Assembly (NCBI GenBank): GCA_963769025.1
Contig: CAVYKI010000003.1
Location: forward strand, 224,001-288,000
From: an uncultured Verrucomicrobiae bacterium
GTDB lineage: Bacteria; Verrucomicrobiota; Verrucomicrobiia; Chthoniobacterales; Chthoniobacteraceae
Direction of reading: 5' to 3'
DNA: 64,000 nucleotides
Shown here: piece by piece, positions 8,202 through 56,120 of the stretch
Layout: each line of letters opens with the position of its first letter
Numbering within the stretch: position 1 is the first letter of the stretch
Translations under genes and position numbers: made by a program
Notes under the pieces: generated by a model
What the model saw: only the letters and a program-made list of their open reading frames with translations
Told to the model about the DNA's origin: nothing
The model's database searches: none

Positions 8202-9836
8202 CTACGCCATGAAGCCCAGGTACCCGCCTGCGTACGAGCCCGGGAACCGCGTGAGATTTGGGAAGACCGTCGTCATTTCCGTGCCGCTCAGGCCAAACCA
8301 CTTTGCAAGCGTGGCCGAGTATTGATCGACGGAGGTCGTGGGGATCCATCGCCCGGTGCTGGTGTCATCCGGGCCACCCACGGTGAGGGTCGGGAAGGTG
8401 CCGTACGTCTGCCGGCCATTGACGGCCCCACCCACGACAAGATGGTGGCTGCCCCAGCCATGGTCGCTCCCCAGGCCGTTGGCCGGGAAGGTGCGGCCGA
8501 AATCGCTGGCGGTGAAACAAGTGACGTTGTTCACGAAATTCGCCGAACCCTGCGCGACGCCGACCTGCTTGATGGCCTTCATGAACGAGCAGACGCACTG
8601 GCTGATCTCGGCCAGCAAATTGGCCTGGGAGCCGATGACGACCGCCGCGTCGTTGGTCGTCGTCTGGCCGGCGTTGGCCGTCTGCCCTGTGTGCGTGTCG
8701 TAGCCGCCCACGGTTACAAAAAAGATCTGCCGCTTCATCCCGATGCCGTTGCTCACGCCAGCCGCGCGGGAACTGCCTTCGATGATCTGGGCGACCATCT
8801 TGAGCTGCTGCATGAGGCCGGAGGTGAAAGTGGAGCCGCCATTGGGAGTCACCACCTGATGCGCGGTGCCCGTCTTGCTCCAGTTTGCGATGGTGGACCA
8901 GTACGTCGGGATCTGCGAGCTGGTGAGGGCCAGGCTCAGGCCCGCGCCGGTATCAATCGTCGCCTTCAATGCCTTGGCGTAGCTGCTCGTGTAGGGATTG
9001 GCGTGGGCGTTATTGATGCCGAGGATGTTGTTCAACGCTATCTGCCTCGCAGCCGTCGCAGACGTGGGGCTGTTGGGATTGGTGACCGAGACCACTCCGG
9101 TCGTTCCCACCGTATATTGCTGGGCAAAAGCGCCGATTTGGAACGTGTTCGCCCCTGCGATCGTGATGCAGGTCGAAAGCGCGTCCAGCGCGTCGTTCGG
9201 GACCGGCTGCTTGGGGTTTGCCGAATGCACGATGTCGGCGATCCGTCCGCCCCAGCCAGTCGCAGGCGGTTGATCGGGGATCGAAGTCTGCCACTGCGTC
9301 ACCTGATCGGCGTGGGAGAAAAGCTGCGGCGGTTTCGCGATCGAGTTCGCCAGGTACTGCGCCTTGGTCATGGGATAGACCAGCGTTCCGGAATTGAGGA
9401 TCGCGCCGACGTTGCCGATGTCGTCGAACCCGGGGGCCTTGTTAAACATCTGCTGCAACTCGAACATCGCCGGGTGCAACCCGTACTCGCGCCCCGCGCC
9501 GTCGATGTAATTGCCGCCGCCCGCCTTCGTGAGCTGCAGCGCCCTGGCGGTGCTGCCGTCGGCGTTCGGGATGGCCAGCACGGGCGTCCGAATGTTCGCG
9601 AAGCTCGCGTATTCCCCGGCGACGGTGGGGATGATCATGTTGTTGGAATCGTTGCCTCCGGCGAGAAAGATGCACACGAGCGCCTTGTAGCCCGTCGTGT
9701 CCGCGCCCATCGCCGAATTGATCAGGAACAGATCGCGGAAACAATTGTTCATCGCCGCCGTGCCGATGCTCGCGCAGGCCGCCTTGCGGATGAATGCGCG
9801 GCGGCTCATCGCCGCCAGGATGCTGTCGTTTTTCAT
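8202..9836 (-). CDS. DUF1501 family protein with Tat signal
   Basis: SRRAFIRK Tat motif; [55 protein letters not shown]. Confidence 0.9.
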
Positions 9837-9843
9837 GGGAGGA

Positions 9844-12800
9844 TTATTTCTGAACTGCGTATTCGGCTGAGGTGACGATGAGATGGATGATCGCCCTCAC
9901 ACGGTCACGCATCTGCTGGTTCGTCGGCGTGGGCGTCGTGTAGGGGAAGTAGGTGGTGTTCGCGACAAAGTTTTGAATCTGCGTTTTTGTCTCGGCGACC
10001 AGCGGCCCTCCCACCAGAAGGGCGGCGAGTTCGTCGATCAGGGCCGGGATGCCCACGTTCGATGTCTTCGCCGGAACCAGGAAGGGCTGAATGCTCATCA
10101 CCACCGACCCGCTGCCGTTGTTGAAGCTGCTCAGCCCGTTGAGATTTCCGTTCCCGCCCCCCGTGCCGATGAACACGTTGGTCAGGCTGTTCGTGAGGTT
10201 CATCACGTTGGTATCGGTCGTAAGCTGGAACTCGGGCGAGTCGAGGCCCTGGTTCGAGAGATCGCCCGGGAATTTGTAGTCGGGCAGGAAGTAGTTGAAC
10301 ACCGTCGGGGCGTTCAGCGGGGACTGGGTGAGGGACCCCTCCGTGTTCCCCACGTTGAAGGTGCTTTGGTTGATGGTCACTACGCCCGAGCGTCCCGTCG
10401 GCGCCGGCGCCAGCGGGTAAAGCGTGACGCCGTTGTTGGACCCGGAAGGCTTCGGATAGGTGCCGAGGGCTGAGCTCACGGGCAGATACGAAGTCTTGAA
10501 GTGGTCGTCGTCGGCCGTGTTCGTGATCGTGTATTCGCCGTCCGACAACGGCGTGGTCACAACCGGCACATCGACCCACACATTCTGCCCCACGAGCATG
10601 CTGTGGTTCACATTGGTATTGAACTGGACAATCGTATTGCTGGTTTGCGGCGTGTAGCTCGTGCTGACCTTCGGCATGAGGACATTTCCGGTCCTCGTCG
10701 CCGTCGGCACGTCGGCGGTGGCGACCGTGAACGAGGTCGTTCCCGTCGCGGACTGCACCTCATAGACGCCATCCGTCGCGACAGGGCCGAACGCGCCGGT
10801 CGCCGTTCCCGCAGCGGTCGGGCTCGCGGTGCACTGCGCCGGGACCGTGAAGGTGTCCGCATCGAGAACCGTGACCGTGTGGGTCTTGTTGATCACGTTC
10901 AGGCTGGTGACGCCGCCGCTGATGAATGTGCCGCCGGTGACTCCGCTGATCGCGATCGTGTTCCCCGTCGCCAGCCCGTGCCCGGCCTTGGTGATGGTCA
11001 CGGGATTCGTCGCCGCCATGCTGGTCAGCGCGAGCGAGGCGTTCCGGGTCAAAACGCCGAGATACACCTTGCTCTTCAGCGTCGTCGTTCCGCTGTTTGC
11101 CGCGGGAATGACGACATCGGTCTGCGGCCCGCCGGTGTTCACGGTCATGATGCTGCTCCCCGCGTTCTGCGTGTAGGTCACATTGACCATGCCGGTCGCA
11201 TTCACATCCAGGGTGTTGCCTCCGACGATGCTGCCAGTATTGGCCGACGAGGCCACCGCACAACTGGACGCGATCGTAAAAGAGGACGGATCCACAACGG
11301 TGACCGGGAAGGTGCCGTTGATGGTCGGAGTGAAAGAGCCGCCCGAGACGCCGGAGATGGTCACGCTGCTTCCATCGCTCAGTCCATGCGGCACCACCGT
11401 GGTGACGACGCACGGATTGCTGACCTCGCGCCATGTGGTGTAGCTGGTGGGGACGGCGGTGCAATTGACTCCGGTGACCGTGAACGTGTTGGGGCCGGTG
11501 CTGACGACCGACAGGTTGGTCGCGTTGATGGTGCCGGCGAACGTTCCACCGACGACGCCGTTGATGGTGACGCCGGTCGTGGTGCCCGCGGACAGGCCGT
11601 GCGGGGTCGTGGTCGTCACGGTGCACGGGGAACCGATCGAGATGGATGCGACCTGAAAGACGCGGGACGTCGTAATCGGGACCGTAAAGGTGTCGGGCCC
11701 GGTCACTGTCGCCGTGATCCCGGCGTTGATGGATGCCGAGAAATTCCCGGATAGGCCGGTGGGCCATACCGTCCTCGTCTGCCCCACCGTCCCCAAGCCA
11801 TGAGGCTTGGTGGTGGTGATCACCGTCGGATTGCCCGTGCCGATGCTGGCGATGTCGAGGTGCGTGGCGGCGATGGCCAGCGTGGCACTCGTGGTGTAGG
11901 TCGTGCTCGTGGGATTGTTGTAGGGATTTGGCGGGGTTGTCTGCGTGTAGTTGCCCAGGAAATTCAGGCTGACGCTGAACGATGCGCTGAAATCGTTCGG
12001 CGTGCTCGTGACGAGGCGGAGCTTGTTGGAATTCACACCGGTCAACTGCGTGTAGGTGCCGGTGTAGGAGGCCGCCGGAAACGCCCGCGCGGGTCCGGTC
12101 AGGCGGAGCATCGGCTCACGCTGTTTGCCGAACTTGTTCGGGAATTCGGGCGTTACCGCGCGCTTCGCCATCCAACAGGATCTGCCGCACGACTGCCGCC
12201 ATGTCTCCGCGGACACCGGAACCGTTGTCCTTGAACTTCTGCACCACGCGGTAGAGGTAGCCGGGGCTCGGATCGCTGGTCACCAGCCGCTGGATGAGCT
12301 GCCGGCAGATGTAAGGCGGGACGTTGTCGTTGTTGACGATGTTATCGATGGCAACGTCCAGCTCCTTGAGTCCGAACTGGTCGTACGGATGCGGCAAGGT
12401 GGTGCCGGTGCTGTCCGCCTGCGAACCGGTGACGACCGGAACGACGTTGTTGGCAAACGTGGGCGAAACGACCGTCGCCCCGGTGACCGTTCCGGTGCCG
12501 CTCGATGGCGCGGTCGTGCAGTTGACCGGGACGGTGAATGTCTTCGCCCCCGTTACGGTCACCTGGAAGCTCGCATTGATCGCTCCGCCCGGGAAAACCC
12601 CGCCGCTGACACTCGCGATCGTGACCGTGTCGCCGGTCGTCAATCCGTGGACCGTGGACGTGGTCACCGTGCAAGGGTTCCCGATCGCGACGCTGGTGAC
12701 GCTCACCCTCGGCGTCAGCCCGGTCGCAGCCGGGGTGACTACATTGTCCAGCAGCAGCTTGGCATTGATATCATGGTAGTTCGGCACGAGGACCATCGGA

Positions 12801-15800
12801 TTCAGGGTGTCTGCAGCCGGGCTGAAGCTGGTCGGGGCGCGTCCGTTCCCCTGGTTGGCCTGCGCGTAGTTCCAGCCGGTGAGCAGCGCAGACATGCCGA
12901 GGACGCTCGACTGGCTGTAGGTCGGGATCAGGTTTGCATTGGAATCGAGCACGAGCTTCCCGTCGTCCCACATGCGGTTCAGGCCGATGGAGAAGAGCTG
13001 CAGGATTTCCCGCGCGTAGTTTTCATTCGGGTGCCGGCCGATGGTGGGATCGCCCTTCTGGTTTGCCCGCATGTCGAGGTACAGGCCCATCGCGGGCGTC
13101 AGCGTGACGGCCTTTAGGATGCCGCGGAAATTGCCGCTGTTCGCCAGCCCGGGCGTGGGGAGGCAATAGTCCACGAGCTGATCGTAGTAGTCCGCGAGGA
13201 TGCGCCCGTTGTTCTGCAGAGGGCCGGTGTCGTCGGCCCACGAGACCACCAGAATCTCGCTCAGCGCAAATGCCAGCCGCTGGCGCAACTGGTCCGGTCC
13301 GGTGATCGAATATTTCCACCACGCGTTCGTGAAGAGCGATGACGGGTAAGGCGAATTGATGTCCGCCGTGAGGCCGTTGACCACGTCTCCCGAGGCATAG
13401 CTCGCGGGCTGCAGGAGCTGGTCGTCGATCCACGCCGAAAAGCCGTTGGCCTTCACGTACGCGACATCCGATGGGCTCGCACCGAAGGTGGCCTGATTCA
13501 GGAACCGCGCAGCGGCCGCACCCGTGGAGTCCGAGGCGACATCCGTCATCGCACGCGCCGGGTAGAGCGCCGGACTCGGCGGCGTCTGCGAGCCATCGAC
13601 CAAATGCAGGTTCCCGCGAATTTCCCCGCCGGGGAACATGACGGAGTGGACGTTGATGTACACTTTTCCCTTCTTGAGCGCATCGAGGAGCGTGTCGCTC
13701 CCGGTGTTCAGGAATGACCCGAGGGCGGCCAGGTCCCAGATGAGTCCGCCGTCCGGAGTCCGGAGCTCAGGCTGCACTTCCGCCGAGTCGATGTCGTAAA
13801 CGATCTCCCCGTTCGGGTGGATGACGTTGCCGCCGTCGGTGTAGCCGTCCACGTGCAGATGGTAGTTGGTCTTCGGCGTCGTGAGGTTCTGGTAGTTAAA
13901 ATACAGGATGGCCTGAGTCCCGGCCGCGTTCACCCGGAGGTTCGCCGAGCCGCTGCCCTTCGTGCTGACTGCCCCCTGCGGGCCGAGGTTTGCGGAATAC
14001 AAGCTGCCTCCCGTCGCCACCAGGGCGGGATAATCATATGGCTGGAAGATGTAGCTCGGCACCGTGCCGCTGCGCGGGTAACCGTCCAACGCGGCTCCGC
14101 CGTTCGGAATCTGCGTCGTTGCACCGGCCGCATTGGGCGCCGCCGCAGTGGAAGGAACGGTCCCAATGTCATCCTGGCACCAGCCCATCGAGACGTAATC
14201 GTCCGCCCCGCCGCCCGGCGTATTATGCAGGACGTCGAAGTAGTATTTCTGGCCCGCCTTCAAGGACAGCCATTGGGTCTTCTGCGTCGGGAAAACACTC
14301 CAGACCCTCTTCCCCGTGTTCCCCGAGACGGTCGCACGGCGGACGCGATTCACGTACTCCGCGTCGTTGGAAATCCACAGCTCCGCCGAGTTGTTCGCGG
14401 CCAGCCAGAAATAGTAGTTCCCGGTCTTCGGAGGGACGATGTAGCCGCGCAGACGCCGCACCGTGGCGCTCGCGTAATTCGTGTCATCGTCCAGCGTGGA
14501 AATCGTGCCGTCCGGCGTGAAGGTCCCGTTCGCCGCGACATCCTTCTCACGCGTGAGGCTGCCGGTCGGATAGATGGTGATGATGACAACGGAACTGCCG
14601 GTCACGGTGCCGGCCGCCGCGTTCGTCGCGTTGATCGCGACATTGTAGGTGCCCGCGAGGGTCGGTGTGCCGGTGATGGCGCCGCTCGCGTTCATGCTCA
14701 GGCCGGGCGGCAGCGGCGCGCTGCTCGCATCCACTGCGTAAGTCACGGCCCCGCTGATGTTCGGAGCGACGACGTTGAAGCTGAACGGAACGTTCTCGTA
14801 GCCCACCGCGACGAGCGAATGCGTGAGCGCCGTCATTTTCTCCGCCACGGCACCCTCCGGGAAGAGGCGGTTCTGCGGAATGATTTGCTTCGTCTGGCTC
14901 GCGCTCCACCAGTAGAGGCGCGCCTCCGCGCTTCCGGTGCCGTTGTAGTACTCGATGACGATGTCGTACGGAACCCCTCCCGTGAGGTTGATCGTGTTCA
15001 CGTAGTCCGTGGCACCCTGTGCGGCCCACCGGTCGATGAGCAGCACGCCGTTCACCCACACCTTCGCACTGTCGTCGCTGCGGAAGTCGATGGAGTACTT
15101 CTCCGTGTACTGCGGGAGGATCTGGCCGGTCCAGCGGACCGAGAAAGCCCCGGTCGTCGAGGCATCCGACATCCCGGTCGGACCGGCCGTCGCACCCCAT
15201 CCGTTGACGCCGTTGGTGAAGTCCACCGTCGCATCCGTGCGGGTCATCTTCGCCGTCCCGGCAAAAATGGTCGTCTGGGTCGTGTAGGTGGAGCTCGATG
15301 TGTTGTAGTACCTTCCCGTCAGCCCGGTGCCGTTGGCGAGGCCCGCCGGATTGATGACCACGCTGGCGCTGTTCGCGGCACCGAGGCTGTAGTCCGTGCC
15401 GGCCATGGCCTTGACGATTGCCGTCACGTTCGTTTTCCGGGCACCGTGGTACCTCGGGTTCACGCTGAAAGTCTGTGCGGTCGCCCCGAGCGAACTGAAG
15501 GTGACCGATGACGGCAGGCTATCGTAATCCGTGCCCTCCGTCGCTGTGCCGGCCTTCTGCAGCGGTACCGTGATGGGCGTCTTGGCGGTGAGCGTGCCGA
15601 GCTTGGTGATGCCACGGGAGACGGTGATCGAGCCCACTTCCTCCGGTGCCGTGATCGGATCCGCCGGCTGCGTCGCGTTCGCCTTGTTCACCGTCACGGT
15701 GACCCGATTCAGCGAAGCCAGGGCCTCGGGAATCGCGGCGGAATCCAGCGTCTGGCCGTCGGTCATCTGCGTACCCGTGTTGTATCCCAGGATTTTCTTC

Positions 15801-16366
15801 GCCCAGTCACTCACGCCGCTGCCGCTGGAGTCCTTGTCGTCCACCAGGATCCGGAAAAACGTATTCGCGGCATAGGTCACCACGATCTGTCCCGGGTTGC
15901 CGTCCCCGACCAATTCCGAGGGCGTCTGTGCCGGAACCACCCAGCTCGCGGGATTCGAAAGCGTCGTCGTCGATTGCGCCCGGTACCGTTTGCCGTTCTC
16001 GGTGGGAAACTGAAGGGTCACATTCGAACCGCTCGCCGTGATGCTCGAAATCTTGATCGTGTTGCTCCTGCTGAACGGATTCGTGCCCGCGGCCAGCTCC
16101 TCCTTGTTCTTGATACCGTCCCCATCGTCATCCGCATTCATCCACGCGGTGTTCAGCCCCTGCGCTGGATCGCCACTGGTGTAAAGCTGGCCATTCGAAA
16201 CGGCGAACTTCATCTGCCAGACCTGCTGGTTGATGGAGTTGACATCCGCGTGCGCGAACCGGGCAAATCCGAAAAGAACCAGAGCCGCCAAGGCGAGCGC
16301 ATTCAGGATGCGAGCCGAGCGCTGCAGGACCGGGACGCGATTACGGGGGAAGGAGGGTACTTTCAT
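9844..16366 (-). CDS. Giant secreted DUF1800 protein (Calx-beta-like, PA14, putative Ig, CHRD, DUF1800 with inserted beta repeats); one frameshift near 12149
   Basis: [55 protein letters not shown]. Removing one C joins [10 protein letters not shown] to [12 protein letters not shown]. Ends [12 protein letters not shown]...SAEYAVQK. Confidence 0.85.
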
Positions 16367-16996
16367 GGTGCAGTGAGGTACAGCCCCCGGAGCAGCGACG
16401 GCGGGCAACCGGCAGTGGGGGAGGGGGAATCGCCTTTTGGGCAATTAGTTGTGGAAAGTATTATGCGGAAACCATCCAGCAAGATAAAAGATTTCACATA
16501 ACGATTACGACACGATTGCCGAAACCCACCACTCTCCCACCCGGGGCATGCGTGGGAACGGCGGACGGATGCTTCCCTGGCCTTCGCCGCACGAAGCCAA
16601 CCACGCGCCCGAAGCCTGCACCTCTTCGCCGTCCCTTACATCGCTAAAACGTTCGAGGCGTGAGCGACGCACCCCCTTTCTCGGCTGCGACTACGGCGGC
16701 AGGCAGGGGCGCGAGATCGCCCCGTCCGAGAATGTCGTGTGGAGCTACGCGTGCATGGATCCGGCGTACTGGGAGTCGGCCTCGCGAACGGCGCCTGCGC
16801 AAACTCCGGATAAAAAGATCGTCCGTCAGTGCGGCGATCCCGCAATGTGACAAAGCGAAATCCCCGGGACCCGGCCCGGAGCGCGGGGTCAGCGGCAAAG
16901 ATTGCGGCACCGCGCGATTTCCGCAGAGAAGGTGGCGTCGGTGAAAGGCACGGTTTCTCCGCTGGCGGACTCGCATCGCAGAGATACCTTGCGCTC

Positions 16997-22815: not shown

Positions 22816-23945
22816 ATGCCCGTTGTCGCAAAAGGTCTCGAAGGAATCATCGCCAACTCCACCCGTCTCTCCGACGTGCTCGGAGACGTCGGCCAGCTCA
22901 TCTACGCGGGCTACGACATCAATGAACTCGCGGGAAAAGTGTCCTTCGAGGAGGTCATCCACCTCCTGTGGTACGGCGAACTCCCGAACTGGCGCCAGCT
23001 CAACACGCTGACCGAGGAGCTGCGCAGCCACCGCGAGCTTCCCCGTGGCGTCATCGATTTCCTCACCTCGGCCCCGAAGGACGCGGGACCCGATGGATGT
23101 GATCCGCACCGCGATCTCGATGCTCGGCCTCTACGATCACCATCTCGATGACACCTCGGTGGATCGCAATCGCGAGCGCGCCATCAGCATCACCGCGCGG
23201 ATTTCCGTCATCGCCGCGTACTACCACCGCGCGCGCATGGGCAAGAAGCTCCTCCCCATCCGCAAGGATCTCGGCGAAGCCGCGCACTTCCTCTACCTGC
23301 TCACCGGCGAAGAGCCGAGCGCCGAGGCCGCGCAGACGCTCGACGTCGCCTACGTGCTCCACGCCGACCACGGCATGAACGCCTCAACGTTCAGCGCGCG
23401 CGTCACCATCGCGACGCTGACGCGACATGTATTCCGCCATCACCTCCGCGATCGGCACGCTGAAAGGCCCGCTGCACGGCGGCGCGAACGAAGGCGTCAT
23501 CCACATGCTCCAGGAGATCGGCAGCGAGGCGAATGTGGACGCATGGGTGGACAACGCGCTCGCGCAGAAAAAGAAGATCATGGGCATCGGCCACCGCGTC
23601 TACAAGGTGCTCGACCCGCGCGCGCCGCACCTCCGCGCGATGGCCATCAAGCTCACGGAAAAGCACGGCGAGCCGAAATGGCTGCGCATGAGCGAGCGCA
23701 TCGCGACGATCATGAAGGAGAAGAAGGATCTGAATGCGAACGTCGATTTCTACAGCGCCACGGTCTATTACTCGCTCGGCCTGCCGACGGACATGTTCAC
23801 GCCCATCTTCGCCATCTCGCGCACCGCGGGCTGGACCGGCCACGTCCTCGAACAGCTCGCCGACAACCGCCTCTACCGCCCGCTCAGCGAATACACCGGC
23901 CCGGCCGTCGGCAAAAAGGTCGTCCCGCTCGCGATGCGGGAATAG
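22816..23945 (+). CDS. gltA: Citrate synthase; frameshifts near 23088 and 23420
   Basis: KGLEGI, LHADHGMNASTF, GPLHGGANE, MGIGHRVYK, NANVDFYSA spread over three frames. Confidence 0.92.
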
Positions 23946-46836: not shown

Positions 46837-48019
46837 ATGAATTCCGGCTTCCTCGACAAACTCCTCGAACGCCTCGGCCGCGTCCGCCCCGAGGAGATCC
46901 GCGACTACGTCGTGCGGCTCGCCGACGAAAAGGGATTCTTCGAGACGATTTTCGACGCGCTGCACGAGGGAGTCATCGTCACCGACCCGACGGGCGCCAT
47001 CACTTATCTCAACCGTACCGCGTGCGGGTTTTTCGGCATCGAACGCGACGCCGCGATGGGGCGTCCGCTCGCCGAGCAGCTCCGCGGCCTCGACTGGAAC
47101 GCCATCGCCGCCTCGGAAAAATCCGTGTCGCGCGACATGGAGGTCTTCTATCCGCAGAACCGCTTCCTCAATTTCTACGTCGCGCCTCTGCGGGTGGAAA
47201 AGGCGCCTGCGAAAAAGGGCGGAACCGCCGAGCAGGAACTGATCGGCTACGCCGTCATCCTGCGCGACATCACCGAGAGCCGGAAGAGCACCGAGGAGAC
47301 GATTCAAAGCGAACGCCTCAACGCGCTCACGATGCTCGCCGCCGGGGTCGCGCACGAAATCGGAAACCCGCTCAACTCGCTGAACATCCAGCTCCAGCTC
47401 CTCGCGCGCCGCATGCGAAAACTGCCGGACAGCCAGCGCAAGGATCTCCTGAAAAGCGTGGACGTGGCGAAGGAGGAAATCTCGCGGCTCGACACGATCA
47501 TCCGCCAGTTCCTCGGCGCCATCCGCCCTGCGCGGCTCGAACGCCGCCTCGAAAACGTCAACCATCTCGTCCAGGAAAGCGTCCGCTTTCTCGATGCCGA
47601 GACCACGGACCGCAACATCATCGTCGAGACCGAACTGCGCGCCGATCTTCCGCTGCTCGAACTCGACCGCACCCAGATCAAGCAGGCGTTCTTCAACGTG
47701 ATCCGGAACGCCTTCCAGGCGATGAAAAGCGGCGGCATCCTGCGCATCCGCACGGACATGGACGACCGCTTCGTGAGCATCACCTTCGCCGACACCGGCG
47801 GCGGAATCCCCGAGGCGGAGATGAGCAAAATCTTCGAGCCCTACTTCACCACCAAGGCCGCCGGCAGCGGCCTCGGCCTGCTCATCGTCCGCCGCATCGT
47901 CCGCGAGCACGGCGGGCGAGATCGAGCTCATGAACGACTCCGGCAAAGGCCTCGCCCTCACGATGAAGCTCCCCATCGGCGACCAGCGCCTGCGGATGCT
48001 GCCCGCGCCGGCGGCGTAG
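46837..48019 (+). CDS. PAS-domain sensor histidine kinase (NtrB/AtoS-like); frameshift near 47913
   Basis: PAS, AAGVAHEIGNPL H-box, N-box, DTGGGI, FEPYFTTK, GSGLGL; the shifted frame ends ...RMLPAPAA with a stop at 48019. Confidence 0.9.
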
Positions 48020-48196: not shown

Positions 48197-51100
48197 ATGA
48201 ATCTTACCCCCCCCCGAACATTCCCGCTCATCGCGCGTGTCGCATTCCCGTCGCTGGCTTCGCGCCTGCCGAGTCTTCGCCATCTTTCTCTTCCTCTGCG
48301 CGCTTTGCTCGCGGGCGGACACGGAGGTTTTTGAGATTCGTACTTCAGCACCGTTTTTCGGGCGGACGCTTACTCAGACCGAGAACGTGGACAACACGAG
48401 CTGGCAGGTAGGGACGCTCGCATTTTCCCAGAGCTGGAATGGCCAGGCTGGCGTGTGGGACGGCTACGCGACGCTGCCCGGCATTGAATTCGACCTGAAT
48501 GCATACAACCACTTTACCTTCTCCCTGTCCGACTCGGACCTGCGCTGCGCGATAGGCCCCCTTGCCATTCAGGAGGCGCGGAACTCGGATCATGTCCTCT
48601 GGCTGGATTTCAAGCCGCAGTTTACCGGCCCCGCAACGTGGAGCTTCATGGTCCACGCCGATCTCGTCGGTCACGCACTCGGAGTCGCGCAGCCGGTGGA
48701 GGGCGGAGGCCCGCCCGTGGTTTCTCCCCTGTCTCTTGGCAGCGACTGGTTCTCGGCCTATCGGCTGGAAGGCGGCGGTTCGCCATTTTACGGGGTGCGC
48801 GCCTCGGCCCCCGTGGATCCCGCGAAGCCGTTCTGGGTCGTGGATTTCACCACCGGGCTGCGCGCCCCGGCCGGCGCGACGTATCTCCGGGAGGGGTGGC
48901 TGCCCGACACGGCCTCGTATCCGCTGGTGTCGGTTTCCATCCATCTCGACGCGAACTCCGCCGGCGATCGCTTCACGCTGCACTGGCAGTCGCCCGGACA
49001 GCCGGAGATGGTCCAGTCGCTGCTCGCCGCTCCGGGGGACACCGGCTGGCAGCAGATGGGCAATTGGGCCTGGGAGGATCTGGGCGGCACCGTCTCCGTG
49101 ACGGGGAGCGTCGCCCTCGGGGCAAACTATTGGCTGACACGCGACTCGGACGGCTGGACCTACGACTTCGGGATGCTGGATCCGTTTGCCCAGCGGCCCG
49201 ATCCGCTCCGGTGGTCGTTGCGCGGCATGGCCGCCCCGCCCGTGCAGTGGCAGACGGTGACGTTCCATATCGCCACCGGCTACGGATGGTCCGCGGGCGT
49301 GGTTCAGCCCGGCGGCATGAGATCGCTCAGCCCCACGTACAGCGGCACGTTCACACTGCCGGATGCCGACGAGTGGGGCAATCCGCACGACTTCTACTAC
49401 GAGGAATGGACGGCGCAGATCGACCCGCGCGAACCGTACTGGCTGTCGGTCTCGGGCACGCAACTCAGCTACGGCGACACCTGGTTTTTCAATGGCTGGA
49501 CGGCGATGGGCGGCGCACCGAGGGACATGCAGTCGGTCACCTTCGGCATCGAGAGCGGATTCCGGTGGATCAGCCCCTATGTGAGTCAGAGTTCCGGATC
49601 CCAAAATCTCACGCTCTCCGGGGAGGGATATCAAATCCAGGACTTCACCGCCGACGGCACACCGAATGATTTCCACTACGACCTGTGGAATGCCACGGTG
49701 GATGTGAACCGCCCCTACTTCCTCACCGTCAATGGCACCACGCTCGATGCCAACCAGACATGGTTCACCAACGGCTGGCAGTGGCAGGGCGGCAGTCCGG
49801 CACCGCAAAACTGGCAGACGCTGTATTTCACCATCGCGAGCGGCTGCGGCTGGTGGGGTTCCTACGTCACCCAGGGGAACAACTCCTGGGCGCTGAACTA
49901 TTCGGGCACCGGCGGCTACATCGAGGACTACTGGAATGACGGCAGCGGCACCCCGAATTTTTTCTACTACGATGTTTTTTCCGCGAATGTGAACCTGAAC
50001 CTCCCCTTCACGCTCACCGTCAACGGCCAGCAACTCGCACCCGGCGACACGACCTTTTACAATGGCTGGACGTGGCAGGGCGGGCAAAGGACCACCACCT
50101 TCACGCTCAATCTCACGGTGCCATCCGAGCGCGCCAGCCACGATTTCACCCTCACCGCACCGGACGGTGCCTCGGTCACGTGGACGCCCAATGGCTGGAC
50201 GAGCTGGCAGTGGATTTCCCTCTACGATCCGTGGAGGCTTCATTCGTGGGGAATGTGGGGCTCGCTCAGCAACATCTCGCAGACGCTCGACTGGAATGGC
50301 TCCGCCGGCTCTGGACGCTCACGGATACGGTGACGGGGGAAAATGTGCAGTTCGACCCCTCCGGCGCTGCGAGCCATGCGCTGGACCTCAGCCAGTGGTG
50401 GCTCCCGGCCACGCCCATCCAGTTCCAGGTATCCCTCTCCCGCTGGGGCCACGATCTCCGTCTCCGGCAAAAGGACGGCGGCGAATACTTCCTCACGCCC
50501 GGCAGCAGCCAGGGCGGGCTCGTGCAGACTCCCGACGGCTCGTGGGTGGAGAGCTACTACTATTTCGATGCCACCGGCTACCGCCGCGACATGCCCGGAG
50601 TCGACTGGTGGATTTACGACGCCACCACCGCCGAATACGCCCCCGCGAACACCTCGGACCTCACCGGCTGGTGCTGCACGCCAAGCCCGTGAACCTCGCG
50701 GCTGTGCAAAACGGGCTCGGCAGCGTGGACATCACCTGGGATTTGCTCCCGGCTGCGGCTCGGAACTTCTCGCGGGCTCCTTCACCATCACGCGCACTGA
50801 TGGCGGGCTGACCTATTCCACCGCCGCGACCGCGTTTCTCCGGGAAGATGGGAGCTTCGCGTTTCACTACACCGACGCCAGCCTGCAACCCGGCACCTAC
50901 ACCTATCACATCCGCTACTCGTACGGCTCGCAGACCGGCGAGGCCGCCGTGGTGGACGCCCCGGTGCTCGACGCAGAAGGCTACCTCAAGACCGTGGACA
51001 GCGACGGCGACGGCATCAGCGACTGGGATGAAATCCGCCTGGGCAGCGATCCGAACGACCCGGAGAGCGTGCCGCCGACCGACCCGCAACCAACAGAGCT

Positions 51101-52572
51101 GCCACCCCATCCGCCAGAGTGGCGGGCGATCACACGCGCGGTGGGAACGATCTTTCGGGACTATTCAGTAGAATCGGGAGGACCATACGGATTCGCAGGC
51201 ACTTGGATTCGGGGTGAGGACACCTATTGGTCCCTGCGTTCGCCCCTTGCCTGGACTTCGCTGGGAGCACTTCTGCAACGGAAGTCCCGTTTGATGGGGC
51301 TACTCCGGATTCGGAGAATCCAATTCCTGGGAGCCGGTGGCTACGCCGAGACATGGCCGGACCCTGACGGGCAGTATTACAACGCCCCAGGGTTGACCCA
51401 TCGCCGCGTCTGGCTCGAAGTGCAGCCCGCCGCCACCGAGGCCATCACTCGGCAAATGCTTAAGGTGACCAAGCGAACCATTGACGGCAGGGATCCTGGT
51501 GCTACAAGTGGAACCTGTGACGGTCACCATTCCAGCGGAAGCGACCAAATCCGCGCCAATAGACCTCCTTCCCGCATTCACCACATCCCCGACAGACGGT
51601 ACCCACACGGAGACTGTGAATGTGAGCCTCCTCCCGGTGGACATAACGGTGAGGAAGAAGGGTGAGGCGGTCGATCCGAAAGGAGCCTTGGTCAAGATGT
51701 TTGACACCGCTGAAATTGGGCTGAACCCAGGCTGCTTAGATCAAGACAAGCAGCTTGCGAATTTGATCACATGGGAATATCGCAGACTGTGGGGAGATGG
51801 CACCTTCACTGGGTGGGAAAACTTTGGGACGACCAACGCCAGCAAAGGAACAAAATTTGAATATAAATTCTATTCACCGGGTATCTACCAGATTCGGGCC
51901 AACATTACCTCTACCAATGGGCAACAAATATTTGATTACGTCAGAAAGAATGACGACCCTTTTGGGGCTGATTCCCACGGCACCTATAACAAACTCTACC
52001 GAAGAGGACAGGTGGATTACATTGGCGTCGCAAGGGCAGAACGTGACGCCGCGACTGGAGAAGGTGGCGCGAGCACGGCATTTGAGATTGTGAAGTCCGC
52101 ACGAGGAGCCCTCGATTCGAAGGCATGGGCAGAAGCTCCGGCATATACACTTTCAAACGGTTTTGTCGTACCGCCAGGAGCGTCGAAATGTAATATTTTC
52201 ATTTACGAAATTCTCAACCCATTAAAAGCGGTACCGGTTGACTCTGCAGGTGCTCCGCCGCGGGCGTATGAATGGTGGAAAGTTGATAAGAATATAAACG
52301 GCTGGACATGGCATGGAGGATCATGGTATGCGGAACCAGGAGTTGAAGTGGCCAGATACCAAGGAGGATTTCTGCAATTTAGACTCCCGATATTACCTGG
52401 CCATTGTGGCATTCTCGATTACGATGGCGCTTGGATTAGCGCTGGCTCCGCTAACGTGAATCGCAATCCGCATATTACGGATAAGGGCTTTCACTACTCA
52501 AATAATGGCATGAGCTATAATCAAACCACGCTTCTAGAAATCCACTATCAAACTGCCACGTTCCGTGACTAG
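48197..52572 (+). CDS. Large secreted repeat protein, candidate polymorphic toxin with papain-like C-terminus; several frameshifts
   Basis: Signal peptide, Trp-rich ~93-aa repeats, FN3-like segment, DSDGDGISDWDE, LLPVDI at 51628-51645, then a low-GC domain with KCNIF...EWW...GHCGILD. Joined from ORFs 48237-50333, 50072-50692, 50062-50811, 50343-51665 and 51481-52572. Confidence 0.65.
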
Positions 52573-52580
52573 ATTACAAT

Positions 52581-53189
52581 ATGCAACCAATCCTCCTTCT
52601 CTCAGCCGCATGTGCTATGATTTCTACCGGGCTCGTCCGTGCGGTGCCTCCTGAAACCATCAATTTCCTCTCGAATACAGAGAATAAAGTCTCCGAGGAC
52701 GGAATTCTACCGGACGAGGATCTCGACGTATTACCTTGCGCTCGCTATGTCGTTGCAAACTGGCAATCGGTTTTGACGAGTTTCGCGCAGCTTGCGCCCG
52801 ACACGCGCCGTCAGCGCTTAGTGGTGGTCGCGGCCGAGTTTCTGCCTCCGCGTGACTACGTCTCTTTTGTGAGTGGAATCGCAGACCTCCAAACCACGGG
52901 AAACGCTACGCTGCAAACGATCAAAACCGTCGCGATAGCGAAGATGTTCAAGAACGGGTTCCTAGCGTACAACTTTGACAAGCCAGAGGTCGTTGGTCTT
53001 ATCGCGAAACTTGAAACTATCCTGCAAGCTGGGGAACCGGGGACGTGGACAGCATTCTTCACGGCCATGAAGGCCGGAACGCTTAAACAAGCCATTGTAG
53101 CTGAACGAACACGCGACGGCAACCCCATGCCCGAAGCCCTCGCCGATGGACCCAGTGAAGCATATCGACAGCTAATGGGTAATCAGTGA
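52581..53189 (+). CDS. Secreted hypothetical protein, candidate immunity protein
   Basis: Starts 8 nt after the toxin-like stop, signal peptide (MQPILLLSAACAMISTGLVRA), lower GC. Confidence 0.6.
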   Translation: MQPILLLSAACAMISTGLVRAVPPETINFLSNTENKVSEDGILPDEDLDVLPCARYVVANWQSVLTSFAQLAPDTRRQRLVVVAAEFLPPRDYVSFVSGIADLQTTGNATLQTIKTVAIAKMFKNGFLAYNFDKPEVVGLIAKLETILQAGEPGTWTAFFTAMKAGTLKQAIVAERTRDGNPMPEALADGPSEAYRQLMGNQ

Positions 53190-53214
53190 GGTAACGCGGC
53201 TGAATACGAAACTC

Positions 53215-53598
53215 ATGCAACTTCATCGGTTGCCAGCCAGGAGCCGTGCTCTTATTGTGTGCATCGTGTGGCTTTCAACAGCTCTTGCATTTCAAGTATT
53301 CGTGAAGCCGGAAGCGGTAACTGTAACAGATCTGAGTGAGATACAACAGAGAATTCAATGGCTGTTCCTTACGCCGATGATGGCGGCCGCCGGTCTTGCT
53401 GAAGCGCTTGCGTGGCCTAGTGAGTTCACCGTCGGAGGTCTCTTAGTCTCACTTGTGTGCCTCTCCGCACTTTCAATTAACACGCTTATCGTAAGTAGCC
53501 GCAGAGCTTTTGTCGTAATGATCTGTATTAACGCCGTAGTTCTTGCGATCGCCGTTATTTACTTCATCCGATTTTCGCGACTGCCTTCAGCCGGATAA
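53215..53598 (+). CDS. Small multi-pass membrane protein, possible second or orphan immunity gene
   Basis: 127 aa, about 4 hydrophobic helices, low GC, co-oriented with the previous two genes. Confidence 0.55.
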   Translation: MQLHRLPARSRALIVCIVWLSTALAFQVFVKPEAVTVTDLSEIQQRIQWLFLTPMMAAAGLAEALAWPSEFTVGGLLVSLVCLSALSINTLIVSSRRAFVVMICINAVVLAIAVIYFIRFSRLPSAG

Positions 53599-53885
53599 CG
53601 CAAATTGAAGCGCCCGATGCAACCGCCTTGCCATTCAAGTGTGGCGGCGTCCCGCCGCGGCAACTGCCTGCGCAGCCGCCCGCCGTGCAGGCAGCTGCGC
53701 CGCCGCAGCGAGCCGCCCACTTAACCACCGGCACCCTGCGCCGTCACTCTCCTGCTAGCCGCGCCGCAGACCCCAACCCCCGCCCGCTCCGCCCACCGCG
53801 CGGCTGTCACGCCGGCTGCTTGCGCGAACCGCTGCGCGCGGCACTGGCCCGCCCATCATTCCGCCGGGCCAGTGCCGTGCTCGCT

Positions 53886-54012: not shown

Positions 54013-54146
54013 TAGCGCGGCAGCCGTCGCGCCAGCCGCCCCGGAGGTGGAGCATCCGGCATTCACCCGCCCCGACACCACCGCTGCCGTTCATGAAGCA
54101 CAATTGGCTTTTGACGGCGGCATTACATCTGGCCATTCTCCCGGCG

Positions 54147-54773
54147 ATGCCGAAGCCGCTCACATGGGATTCCGATGACCCATCCCTCACCTGGGATGCG
54201 CCGGGGCTCACGTGGGACGGATTCGTGCCTGAAGACAACAACCCCAACCCACAGACTAATACCATGCTGCAAGACCTGATAGACCTGAACCTGAGCGATG
54301 CGGACTGGGCGGAGATTGATGCCGCCCTGACCACATTGGAAACCAAACTCGGCGCGAACCTGCTCGACCTGACGACCGAGCAGCGCATGAGCCTCAACAA
54401 GATGGGCGACCGGAGCGAGCCCTTCTGCCGCCAGTCGCTCATCATCGGCCGGCAGAACGCCGCCGAACTGACCGCGCGCGCCGCCGCCGCGCTGGCCAAG
54501 GCCGAGGGCGACCTGGCCGCCTGCGAAAAGCTGCGCCTGCGCCTGACCCGGCTGACTTCCCTGAACGAGAAGGCCAATGACTCGGAAATGGCGCTCGGCA
54601 GCGACGTGATGGAATACGCGCTCTTCCAATACGGCTTCCTGAGCGCCATCGGCGCCGGGGCCGGGCTGGACGATCTCTACGCCCAGCTCGGGCAGCGTTT
54701 CGCCAAAGGCTCCCCGCAGCCCGCACAGCCCGCACAGCCCGCACCGACGCCCACGCCCACGCCGCCCGCGTAG
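54147..54773 (+). CDS. Hypothetical helical protein (alternative start 54264)
   Basis: QDLIDLNL...IDAALTTLE...LT.EQR.SL.KMGDRSEPFCRQ...ALGSDVM; host-like codon usage; three LTWD units at the N-terminus. Confidence 0.7.
   Translation: MPKPLTWDSDDPSLTWDAPGLTWDGFVPEDNNPNPQTNTMLQDLIDLNLSDADWAEIDAALTTLETKLGANLLDLTTEQRMSLNKMGDRSEPFCRQSLIIGRQNAAELTARAAAALAKAEGDLAACEKLRLRLTRLTSLNEKANDSEMALGSDVMEYALFQYGFLSAIGAGAGLDDLYAQLGQRFAKGSPQPAQPAQPAPTPTPTPPA

Positions 54774-54963: not shown

Positions 54964-56120
<1,157 letters not shown>

Follow-up and report, generated by a model that had tools for sequence, protein, structure and literature searches.

What does a bacterium of the Verrucomicrobiae do with a very large exported protein whose C-terminal part departs from the rest in base composition, resembles a cysteine hydrolase and is followed within a few nucleotides by the gene for a second exported protein? 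The locus in question starts at position 48,237 of a 64,000-nt stretch of an uncultured Verrucomicrobiae genome (G000:C3:224001-288000; hereafter the window, whose coordinates are used throughout), in an assembly of 5.34 Mb in 13 contigs with a guanine plus cytosine (GC) content of 64–65% and a completeness of 83%. It comprises one very large gene, read here across four changes of reading frame that are discussed below, and two small downstream genes. We propose, with a probability of roughly 0.55, that the locus encodes a putative antibacterial effector that is modular, is exported by Sec and belongs to the polymorphic-toxin type, a peptidoglycan-hydrolase toxin being paired in it with a periplasmic immunity protein.

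The C-terminal tail of the protein defines a family of its own. A full HMMER run over 1.84 billion representatives recovered 226 proteins at E≤1e-3, 138 at 1e-10 and 42 at 1e-30; the 150 listed are 92–2920 aa long and have the tail match at their C-terminus or close to it. Domain scans of 24 tail proteins revealed diverse N-termini, with TSP3 repeats in 12 and also Big_1, cadherin-like, RCC1 and LamG domains. The tail's closest relatives sit on unrelated N-termini, including the closest full-length homolog, P0004 (53% identity). In an alignment of 39 members, residues C190 (in KCNxF), H261 (in GHxGIxDYDG) and D268 are invariant. An initial annotation made from the DNA letters had picked out the cysteine codon at 52189, an EWW motif and the histidine codon at 52402 as occurring in the order expected of papain, NlpC/P60 or CHAP-like hydrolases; all three are present, EWW being encoded at 52270-52278, and structural comparison agrees with the proposed order. 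The AlphaFold2 model of the tail (mean predicted local distance difference test score, pLDDT, 87.4; predicted template modelling score, pTM, 0.87) consists of an immunoglobulin (Ig)-like domain followed by an alpha+beta domain. Foldseek comparison with the Protein Data Bank (PDB), one of the checks suggested earlier, found matches to the Ig-like part and left the catalytic domain unmatched. With VIA-align, the 17 best matches are all NlpC/P60 or CHAP-type wall hydrolases (Z 6.4–7.8 over 104–125 residues, root-mean-square deviation 2.6–3.7), and the matches cover residues 134/151–316 of the model. Clostridioides difficile Acd24020 (PDB 7cfl), Bacillus subtilis LytE (8i2e) and the CHAP domain of LysGH15 (4olk) align with residues 151–316 at Z 5.8–7.8, and Tae3 (4hz9), an amidase of a type VI secretion system (T6SS), aligns over 111 residues at Z 6.3.

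At the level of sequence the tie to these enzymes is looser. Sub-threshold CHAP matches occur in 9 of the 39 tail members, with a best E-value of 1.1e-4 and a score of 20.5 bits for P0077 against a cut-off of 26. The window tail gives no match to Pfam CHAP (PF05257) or NLPC_P60 at E≤1, and hhalign comparison of the tail profile with an NlpC/P60-like open reading frame (ORF) of genome G119 is not significant (probability 1.6, with only the strand after the histidine aligned). The tail resembles NlpC/P60 and CHAP wall hydrolases in placing the cysteine before the histidine, and the stretch G-H-x-G-I-x-x-x-x-G-x-x-I from the histidine onward is similar to the NlpC/P60 consensus. It differs from them in its preceding Ig-like domain, in the LLPVDI motif at its head and in a third residue that is an aspartate 7 positions past the histidine. 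Because the fold matches and the invariant Cys, His and Asp residues come without a CHAP match of the tail's own, we describe the domain as CHAP/NlpC-P60-like and do not file it as a member of either Pfam family; judged from the model, it would work like a CHAP or NlpC/P60 enzyme. Of 400 other genomes sampled across the phylum, 11 have the tail; among 29 genomes of the same genus none has it convincingly, and one shows a marginal match with three stops.

The N-terminal part of the protein, which we refer to as the scaffold, tells the complementary story. The scaffold family is rare: database searches yielded three longer and six near-length proteins, 3 of the 29 other same-genus genomes encode it, a search of 185,579 species genomes returned one locus (again that of G022, which encodes P0001), and Joint Genome Institute (JGI) metagenomes returned one 2.5-kb fragment. 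Scaffold relatives carry unrelated C-terminal modules. P0153, P0154 and P0155 are 51–58% identical to the window protein over the first ~950 aa and then continue into private C-terminal parts of 383–758 aa, while the private part of P0001 spans 967 aa and contains an Amidase_3 domain (5.3e-13). The end of P0154 gives weak alpha/beta-hydrolase matches, P0153 and P0173 have a further module in common (35% identity over 387 aa), and P0155 and P0174 have private ends; the P0155 end looks transglutaminase-like by eye, an impression on which nothing here rests. Compared at E≤1e-3, the final 500 aa of P0153, P0154, P0155 and P0001 give no match to one another or to the tail. The shared N-terminus with variable C-termini that the initial annotation predicted is thus seen among the collected homologs, which end in Amidase_3, an alpha/beta-hydrolase, two other modules or none, and the opposing case, in which all homologs would share one C-terminus, is contradicted. 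P0071, P0077 and P0031 combine the scaffold (23–32% identity) with the same tail family (23–39% identity over both parts). In three further relatives, P0165, P0168 and P0169, the last residues form a short hydrophobic peptide of similar appearance (an L-x-V-hydrophobic pattern), which might serve as a sorting or strand signal at the C-terminus.

Base composition separates the two halves of the gene. GC content is 0.64 before and 0.49 after LLPVDI, and GC at third codon positions (GC3) is 0.81 before and 0.51 after. The most likely left change point lies at 51679 (support 51435-51740), which bears out the fall in GC into the tail reported in the initial annotation, and the right change point lies at 53643 (support 53576-53653), just past the stop of the second downstream gene. 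The two points bracket the tail, the gene for a 202-aa protein and the gene for a 127-aa membrane protein, with GC3 of 0.48–0.58 in this cassette against 0.8–0.9. The tail and the two downstream genes therefore form one compositionally foreign, horizontally acquired low-GC cassette. The scaffold gene of G022 (P0001) has no such GC break. At another same-genus locus, in G439 (L037:2700-5598), GC drops from 0.61 to 0.52 in the scaffold gene's final ~300 codons, and two genes downstream, at GC 0.52–0.56, encode exported products with a near-identical C-terminal membrane anchor.

The cassette and the scaffold gene lie among housekeeping genes, the window surroundings including clpP, clpX, trigger factor, rpoA, rplQ, a PAS histidine kinase, sufU and sufS. 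The kinase-to-sufS spacing is 9.8 kb here compared to 1.85 kb in G014 and 1.1 kb in G002, the two genomes in which this synteny was usable (in 3 other genomes checked the genes are on separate contigs). From this synteny the toxin-like locus appears to sit in an accessory island of ~8 kb, which also contains an IS110-family transposase gene. Flanking direct or inverted repeats were looked for at the island and cassette edges and none were found; promoter and terminator scans were uninformative. Also inside the island is an ORF at 54096-54773 (+) that encodes 225 aa with a hydrophobic N-terminus and has a host-like GC of 0.66 and no family match; a paralog that is 34% identical is present on contig C10.

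The initial annotation placed the boundary between constant and variable parts at LLPVDI, whose position at 51628-51645 was correct. Part of this proposal stands. LLPVDI heads the tail module at the GC break: the best-matched stretch begins at query residues 44–53, where LLPVDI lies, in the nearest homologs and also in about half of the 150 tail proteins listed, and the relaxed motif L[LVIMF]P[VIL][DEQ][IVLM] is found in 68 of these 150, lying 272–324 aa from the C-terminus in the 60 that were printed. It is not, however, the end of the constant region, since scaffold homology ends ~180 residues upstream. The tblastn end points put the limit of scaffold homology at about 51086-51101, just past the TSP3 repeat, and the intervening linker is common to a subset of tail-family proteins. 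Among four inspected long relatives with other ends (P0153, P0154, P0155 and P0001), LLPVE occurs in P0154 only, at residue 1295, where it is followed by VDANRDG and precedes the ~600-aa alpha/beta-hydrolase end; no other sign was seen that LLPV[DE] might head terminal modules of different kinds. A whole-genome search for a second relevant LLPV site or LLPV-headed toxin found none.

The gene order downstream of the tail is as initially annotated, with a signal-peptide gene 8 nt past the toxin stop (start at 52581) and then a membrane-protein gene of GC 0.50. The 202-aa partner has six homologs at 36–60% identity, two of them with a C-terminal transmembrane (TM) anchor, and neither it nor the membrane protein has a useful match in Pfam, NCBIfam, PHROGs, PDB sequences or the ESM Atlas. 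We compared 10 tail loci from 8 genomes of the phylum; three of these loci come from one genus and are therefore not independent. In 8 of the 10, a same-strand ORF with a signal-peptide-like N-terminus begins between -20 and +19 nt from the tail stop. By blastp no homolog of the partner or of the membrane protein lies beside distant tail genes; profile comparison with hhalign detects remote partner homologs directly downstream of the tail in G119 (probability 91.8, E 7.5e-7) and G186 (probability 86.1, E 5e-6), while five control ORFs scored probabilities ≤1.5 against the partner profile. For both P0004 and the partner homolog P0158 the longest contig listed measures 66,445 nt, which hints that they share a contig. 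Genes for other exported, membrane-anchored proteins follow the Amidase_3 and P0173-type ends. As to the expectation that downstream genes vary with the C-terminus, different envelope-protein genes follow other ends; behind the same tail, two of the eight downstream ORFs are partner-related and the other six are considered below. In G119 the tail gene and partner homolog are followed by a gene (L007:29-784, -) for a 251-aa membrane-anchored protein with a Cys...His pattern typical of NlpC/P60; the 127-aa membrane protein of the window shows no similarity to the membrane protein that lies downstream in G119.

Table 1. Features of the toxin-like locus and its island (window coordinates)
Feature	Position	Strand	Basis
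Large gene, ~1445 codons (4336 nt)	48237..52572	+	Three-frame translation; GTG start, stop 52570-52572
Predicted Sec-type signal peptide (~aa 1-27, GTG start)	48237..48317	+	Inspection; Kyte-Doolittle hydrophobic stretch aa 6-26
Conserved beta-rich region of scaffold family	48318..49241	+	No Pfam or NCBIfam match
Three tandem ~94-aa repeats	49242..50087	+	Pairwise local alignments, z 20-30 against 200 shuffles each
Conserved domain, frame 2 (SLSRWGHDLR...YYYFDAT...WWIYDATT)	50312..50689	+	Homolog alignments
FN3-like segment (frame 1, then 0)	50690..50990	+	Pattern only in the window
TSP3_bac calcium-binding repeat (DSDGDG)	50997..51062	+	Pfam E 1.1e-7, 31.9 bits against cut-off 25
Linker/pre-toxin region, host-like GC	51102..51627	+	blastp to pre-tail parts of P0056 (5e-10), P0105 and P0031
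LLPVDI, conserved first element of tail module	51628..51645	+	Within support interval of GC change point
Ig/PKD-like beta-sandwich domain	51646..52065	+	AlphaFold2 model; Foldseek matches to CARDB, PKD and Ig
Papain-fold-like Cys-His-Asp domain resembling NlpC/P60 and CHAP	52072..52569	+	VIA-align of model; conserved residues
Catalytic-type residues	Cys 52189-52191 (TGT); His 52402-52404 (CAT); Asp 52423-52425	+	Translation, alignment
Candidate periplasmic immunity/inhibitor protein, 202 aa, signal peptide	52581..53189	+	8 nt past toxin stop; hydrophobic N-terminus
Small membrane protein, 127 aa, last gene of cassette	53215..53598	+	TM-like stretches 10-32 and 69-126; GC 0.50, GC3 0.48
IS110-family transposase	54964..55992	-	Within ~8-kb island; Pfam DEDD_Tnp_IS110 2.4e-20, Transposase_20 5e-18

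Most parts that the initial annotation assigned to the scaffold are borne out (Table 1). The Sec signal is seen by inspection as a hydrophobic stretch, followed by SRA/DT and modelled at low confidence as a helix of residues 4–23. The beta-rich region that follows is 51–58% identical to P0153–P0155 and P0164–P0166 and 23–35% identical to P0001, P0071, P0077 and P0031. The predicted repeats are three in number, and their DNA contains direct repeats at 291-nt spacing. The conserved frame-2 domain has 51–68% identity to P0153–P0155 and P0164–P0165 and 40% to P0001. For the FN3-like (fibronectin type III) segment the support is weak: the window has no fn3 match at E≤0.1, and the equivalent region of P0031 has one at 7.3e-4, below the cut-off. 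The DSDGDG calcium-binding motif falls inside the TSP3_bac match, the only hit above cut-off in a Pfam scan (E≤0.1) of the toxin pieces and three downstream ORFs. The scaffold as a whole, its first ~950 residues, has no match in Pfam, NCBIfam, PHROGs or the ESM Atlas, and PDB sequence searches with P0153 and P0155 returned none.

From these parts we can outline how such a protein might act. It would cross the inner membrane by Sec and leave the cell, possibly by a secretin-dependent route (secretins are present in the genome), the scaffold would bind or present the protein at the target cell, and peptidoglycan would then be cleaved by the C-terminal domain at peptide or amide bonds. Blocking of the enzyme, both in the periplasm of the producer itself and in its sister cells, would fall to the periplasmic partner of 202 aa. 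As for the cassette, recombination in or close to the sequence that encodes LLPVDI may have brought it in.

Comparison with known systems locates what is new. The pair resembles the T6SS Tae/Tai pairs (Tae3–Tai3, PDB 4hz9), in which a papain-fold Cys-His enzyme, presumed periplasmic and peptidoglycan-acting here, is encoded directly upstream of an exported partner; unlike Tae proteins, the window protein has its own predicted Sec signal and extends to ~1445 aa. No association with PAAR, VgrG or Hcp is seen in the window, and a VipB/TssC match was sought in the 83%-complete genome and none was found. Colicin M with Cmi and pesticin with Pim are likewise modular, with a C-terminal domain that attacks peptidoglycan or its precursor and an immunity protein exported to the periplasm; colicin M and pesticin are not known to have a signal peptide and are imported through a receptor in a TonB-dependent manner. 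No such import element was identified here. Domains specific to the CdiA, Rhs, LXG or MuF families are also absent from the Pfam scan of all pieces (E≤0.1), in agreement with the initial annotation, which had seen none of these hallmarks.

The closest precedent is the signal-peptide ('T2SS/Sec', T2SS being the type II secretion system) class of polymorphic toxins, which Zhang et al. (2012, PMC3482391) describe as the most prevalent class. There, lineage-specific N-terminal domains and pre-toxin domains are described for polymorphic toxins, and a Tox-NlpC/P60 papain-fold toxin class is listed. The window locus shares with that class a signal peptide, a lineage-specific N-terminal and repeat region, a variable C-terminal domain, an adjacent immunity-like gene and a C-terminal cassette of foreign composition. 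It differs from the polymorphic toxins listed in PMC3482391 in several respects: neither Pfam nor NCBIfam has a model for the scaffold, for the LLPV-Ig-Cys/His tail or for the partner; the Pfam scan shows none of the trafficking or pre-toxin domains listed there, such as RHS, HINT, PT-VENN or MafB-N; orphan cassettes are absent here, and some scaffold relatives have no toxin module. The 'distinct delivery class' of the initial annotation is not supported, given that Sec-type polymorphic toxins with lineage-specific N-termini and Tox-NlpC/P60 are already in PMC3482391. Its broader description, an undescribed polymorphic toxin–immunity system, survives for the families, which are unannotated, and not for the kind of system, which the same paper already describes. 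Among the titles and abstracts that our literature searches returned, none describes such a system in Verrucomicrobia. What is new therefore lies at the family level, in the scaffold, the LLPV-Ig-Cys/His tail and the partner, while this kind of system is already known. As a tentative extension, which we hold to be doubtful, an unnamed class of Sec-exported effectors might exist in Verrucomicrobiota and other phyla, in which a TSP3-linker-LLPV[DE][IV]-Ig arrangement marks the swap point and envelope-degrading cargo, a CHAP-like peptidase here and amidase- or lipase-like modules on sister scaffolds, comes with its own periplasmic immunity protein and would enter the periplasm of a diderm target without type V, type VI or Rhs machinery.

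Several observations weigh against an antibacterial effector with its immunity protein. The structural Z values of the tail are all middling and below 8, the level at which the tool calls a clear match, and the window tail has no match in Pfam, NCBIfam, PHROGs or PDB sequences (the last searched with both the single sequence and a profile) and no useful one in the ESM Atlas. At the other tail loci, profile comparison detects no relationship to the partner for six of the eight downstream ORFs (probability ≤2.7). There is no evident route across the outer membrane of a target cell, and neither orphan toxin or immunity cassettes nor a paralog of any piece is present in the genome. The scaffold relatives P0165, P0168 and P0169 lack any enzyme module after their TSP3 repeats and P0174 ends in a region that does not look enzymatic, so the scaffold does not serve only to carry toxins. 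The AlphaFold2 model of the scaffold (8 sequences, pLDDT 48.1, pTM 0.35) is too poor for a fold search. Finally, the four frame changes of the large gene all fall within 1.2 kb, more clustered than the mean rate of such changes would predict.

Some of these observations suit other explanations. A secreted or surface peptidoglycan hydrolase that acts on the cell's own wall, or on the walls of dead cells or prey as food, with the partner as a regulatory inhibitor, would draw on the same fold evidence; the inhibitor–hydrolase pair LytE–IseA is among the structural matches (ranks 7 and 9), enzyme-less scaffold relatives exist, and dedicated contact-dependent secretion genes are missing nearby, as is TssC from the genome. 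We nevertheless consider this reading unlikely, as an autolysin would not be expected in a low-GC cassette, on an island not seen between the same flanks in G014 and G002, or to be convincingly present in 0 of 29 same-genus genomes if it served housekeeping, and C-termini swap among close relatives. A different objection concerns the substrate alone: the enzyme might be a papain-fold protease, deamidase or lipid/protein acyltransferase with a target other than peptidoglycan, still within an effector–partner pair. The failure of the window domain against all CHAP and NlpC/P60 sequence models, the middling Z values and the active site would fit, since a serine apparently occupies the position of the third NlpC/P60 residue and the invariant aspartate lies 7 residues past the histidine. 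That all 17 best structural matches are cell-wall hydrolases, that the other identifiable cargoes of the scaffold (Amidase_3 and a lipase-like hydrolase) point to the cell envelope and that a signal-peptide partner fits a periplasmic site of action makes this quite improbable.

The remaining explanations turn on the frame changes. The large gene reads in frames 0/2/1/0/1, to ~50300, 50689, ~50750, ~51500 and then the end, with changes at about 50288-50312, 50683-50689, 50733-50766 and 51495-51508. Mechanical ORF calling yields 4–5 ORFs here, which might be taken as separate genes. We regard this as close to negligible, as single-ORF homologs span every junction and the pieces have no independent conserved starts: P0001 (G022) is an intact 1780-aa ORF collinear with the frame-0 and frame-2 pieces, P0153 (1680 aa), P0154 (1893 aa), P0155 (1533 aa), P0164 and P0165 are single ORFs that run through frames 0, 2, 1 and 0 at 51–68% identity, and P0031 and P0056 span the last change by blastp. 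Because single-ORF homologs cross every junction, we read the pieces as one gene, close to the joined ~1450-aa protein of the initial annotation and contrary to the case of truly separate genes that it had raised against itself. A decaying pseudogene, in which the frame changes are real and perhaps only the downstream genes still work, would fit four changes in 1.2 kb, and the only public read run found (in which 9% of sampled words are present) covers 50758-51019 as a single identical 262-nt contig and usefully bridges none of the changes, so that it gives evidence neither way. We compared this genome with 72 orthologs taken from 200 kb of G014, a genome of the same genus. A strict adjacency rule gave 44 switches of frame over 110.9 kb (0.40 per kb), which affected 25 of the 72 (26 had matches in more than one frame before the rule was applied), with 5–6 switches in other single genes. 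Completeness is 83% despite just 13 contigs, and the pieces contain no in-frame stop or deletion and keep 50–68% identity to homologs throughout. We therefore consider a pseudogene very improbable; at a genome-wide 0.40 switches per kb, assembly indels are the simplest reading, and the four breaks are most likely sequencing or assembly errors, as the proposed antibacterial effector would require. An assembly with ~0.4 frame errors per kb affects all of its gene calls and calls for frameshift-aware handling.

Elsewhere in the window, the neighboring PAS histidine-kinase gene (46837-) is also broken, with a frame change at a GGG run near 47914, and a frame error has probably also interrupted the gene at 23427-23942, an ORF of 172 aa that matches the citrate synthase model over positions 199–356 only. 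The window encodes, at 12119-16444 (-), another very large protein that looks exported and has TSP3_bac, PA14, GLEYA, CHRD and DUF1800 domains; it adjoins a DUF1501 protein (8205-9836, -) and is unrelated to the toxin-like locus. As it also carries TSP3_bac, TSP3 repeats recur in the large proteins of this genome.

The Verrucomicrobiota, a phylum abundant in soils, in freshwater and in guts, have been little studied for interbacterial weapons. An antibacterial effector of the kind proposed here would raise the question of how a Sec-exported wall hydrolase reaches the periplasm of another diderm cell. If the proposal is true, three unannotated families would gain a function, namely the ~950-aa scaffold, the tail with its at least 226 representative clusters and the partner, and the locus would provide a tractable toxin–immunity pair for periplasmic expression tests.

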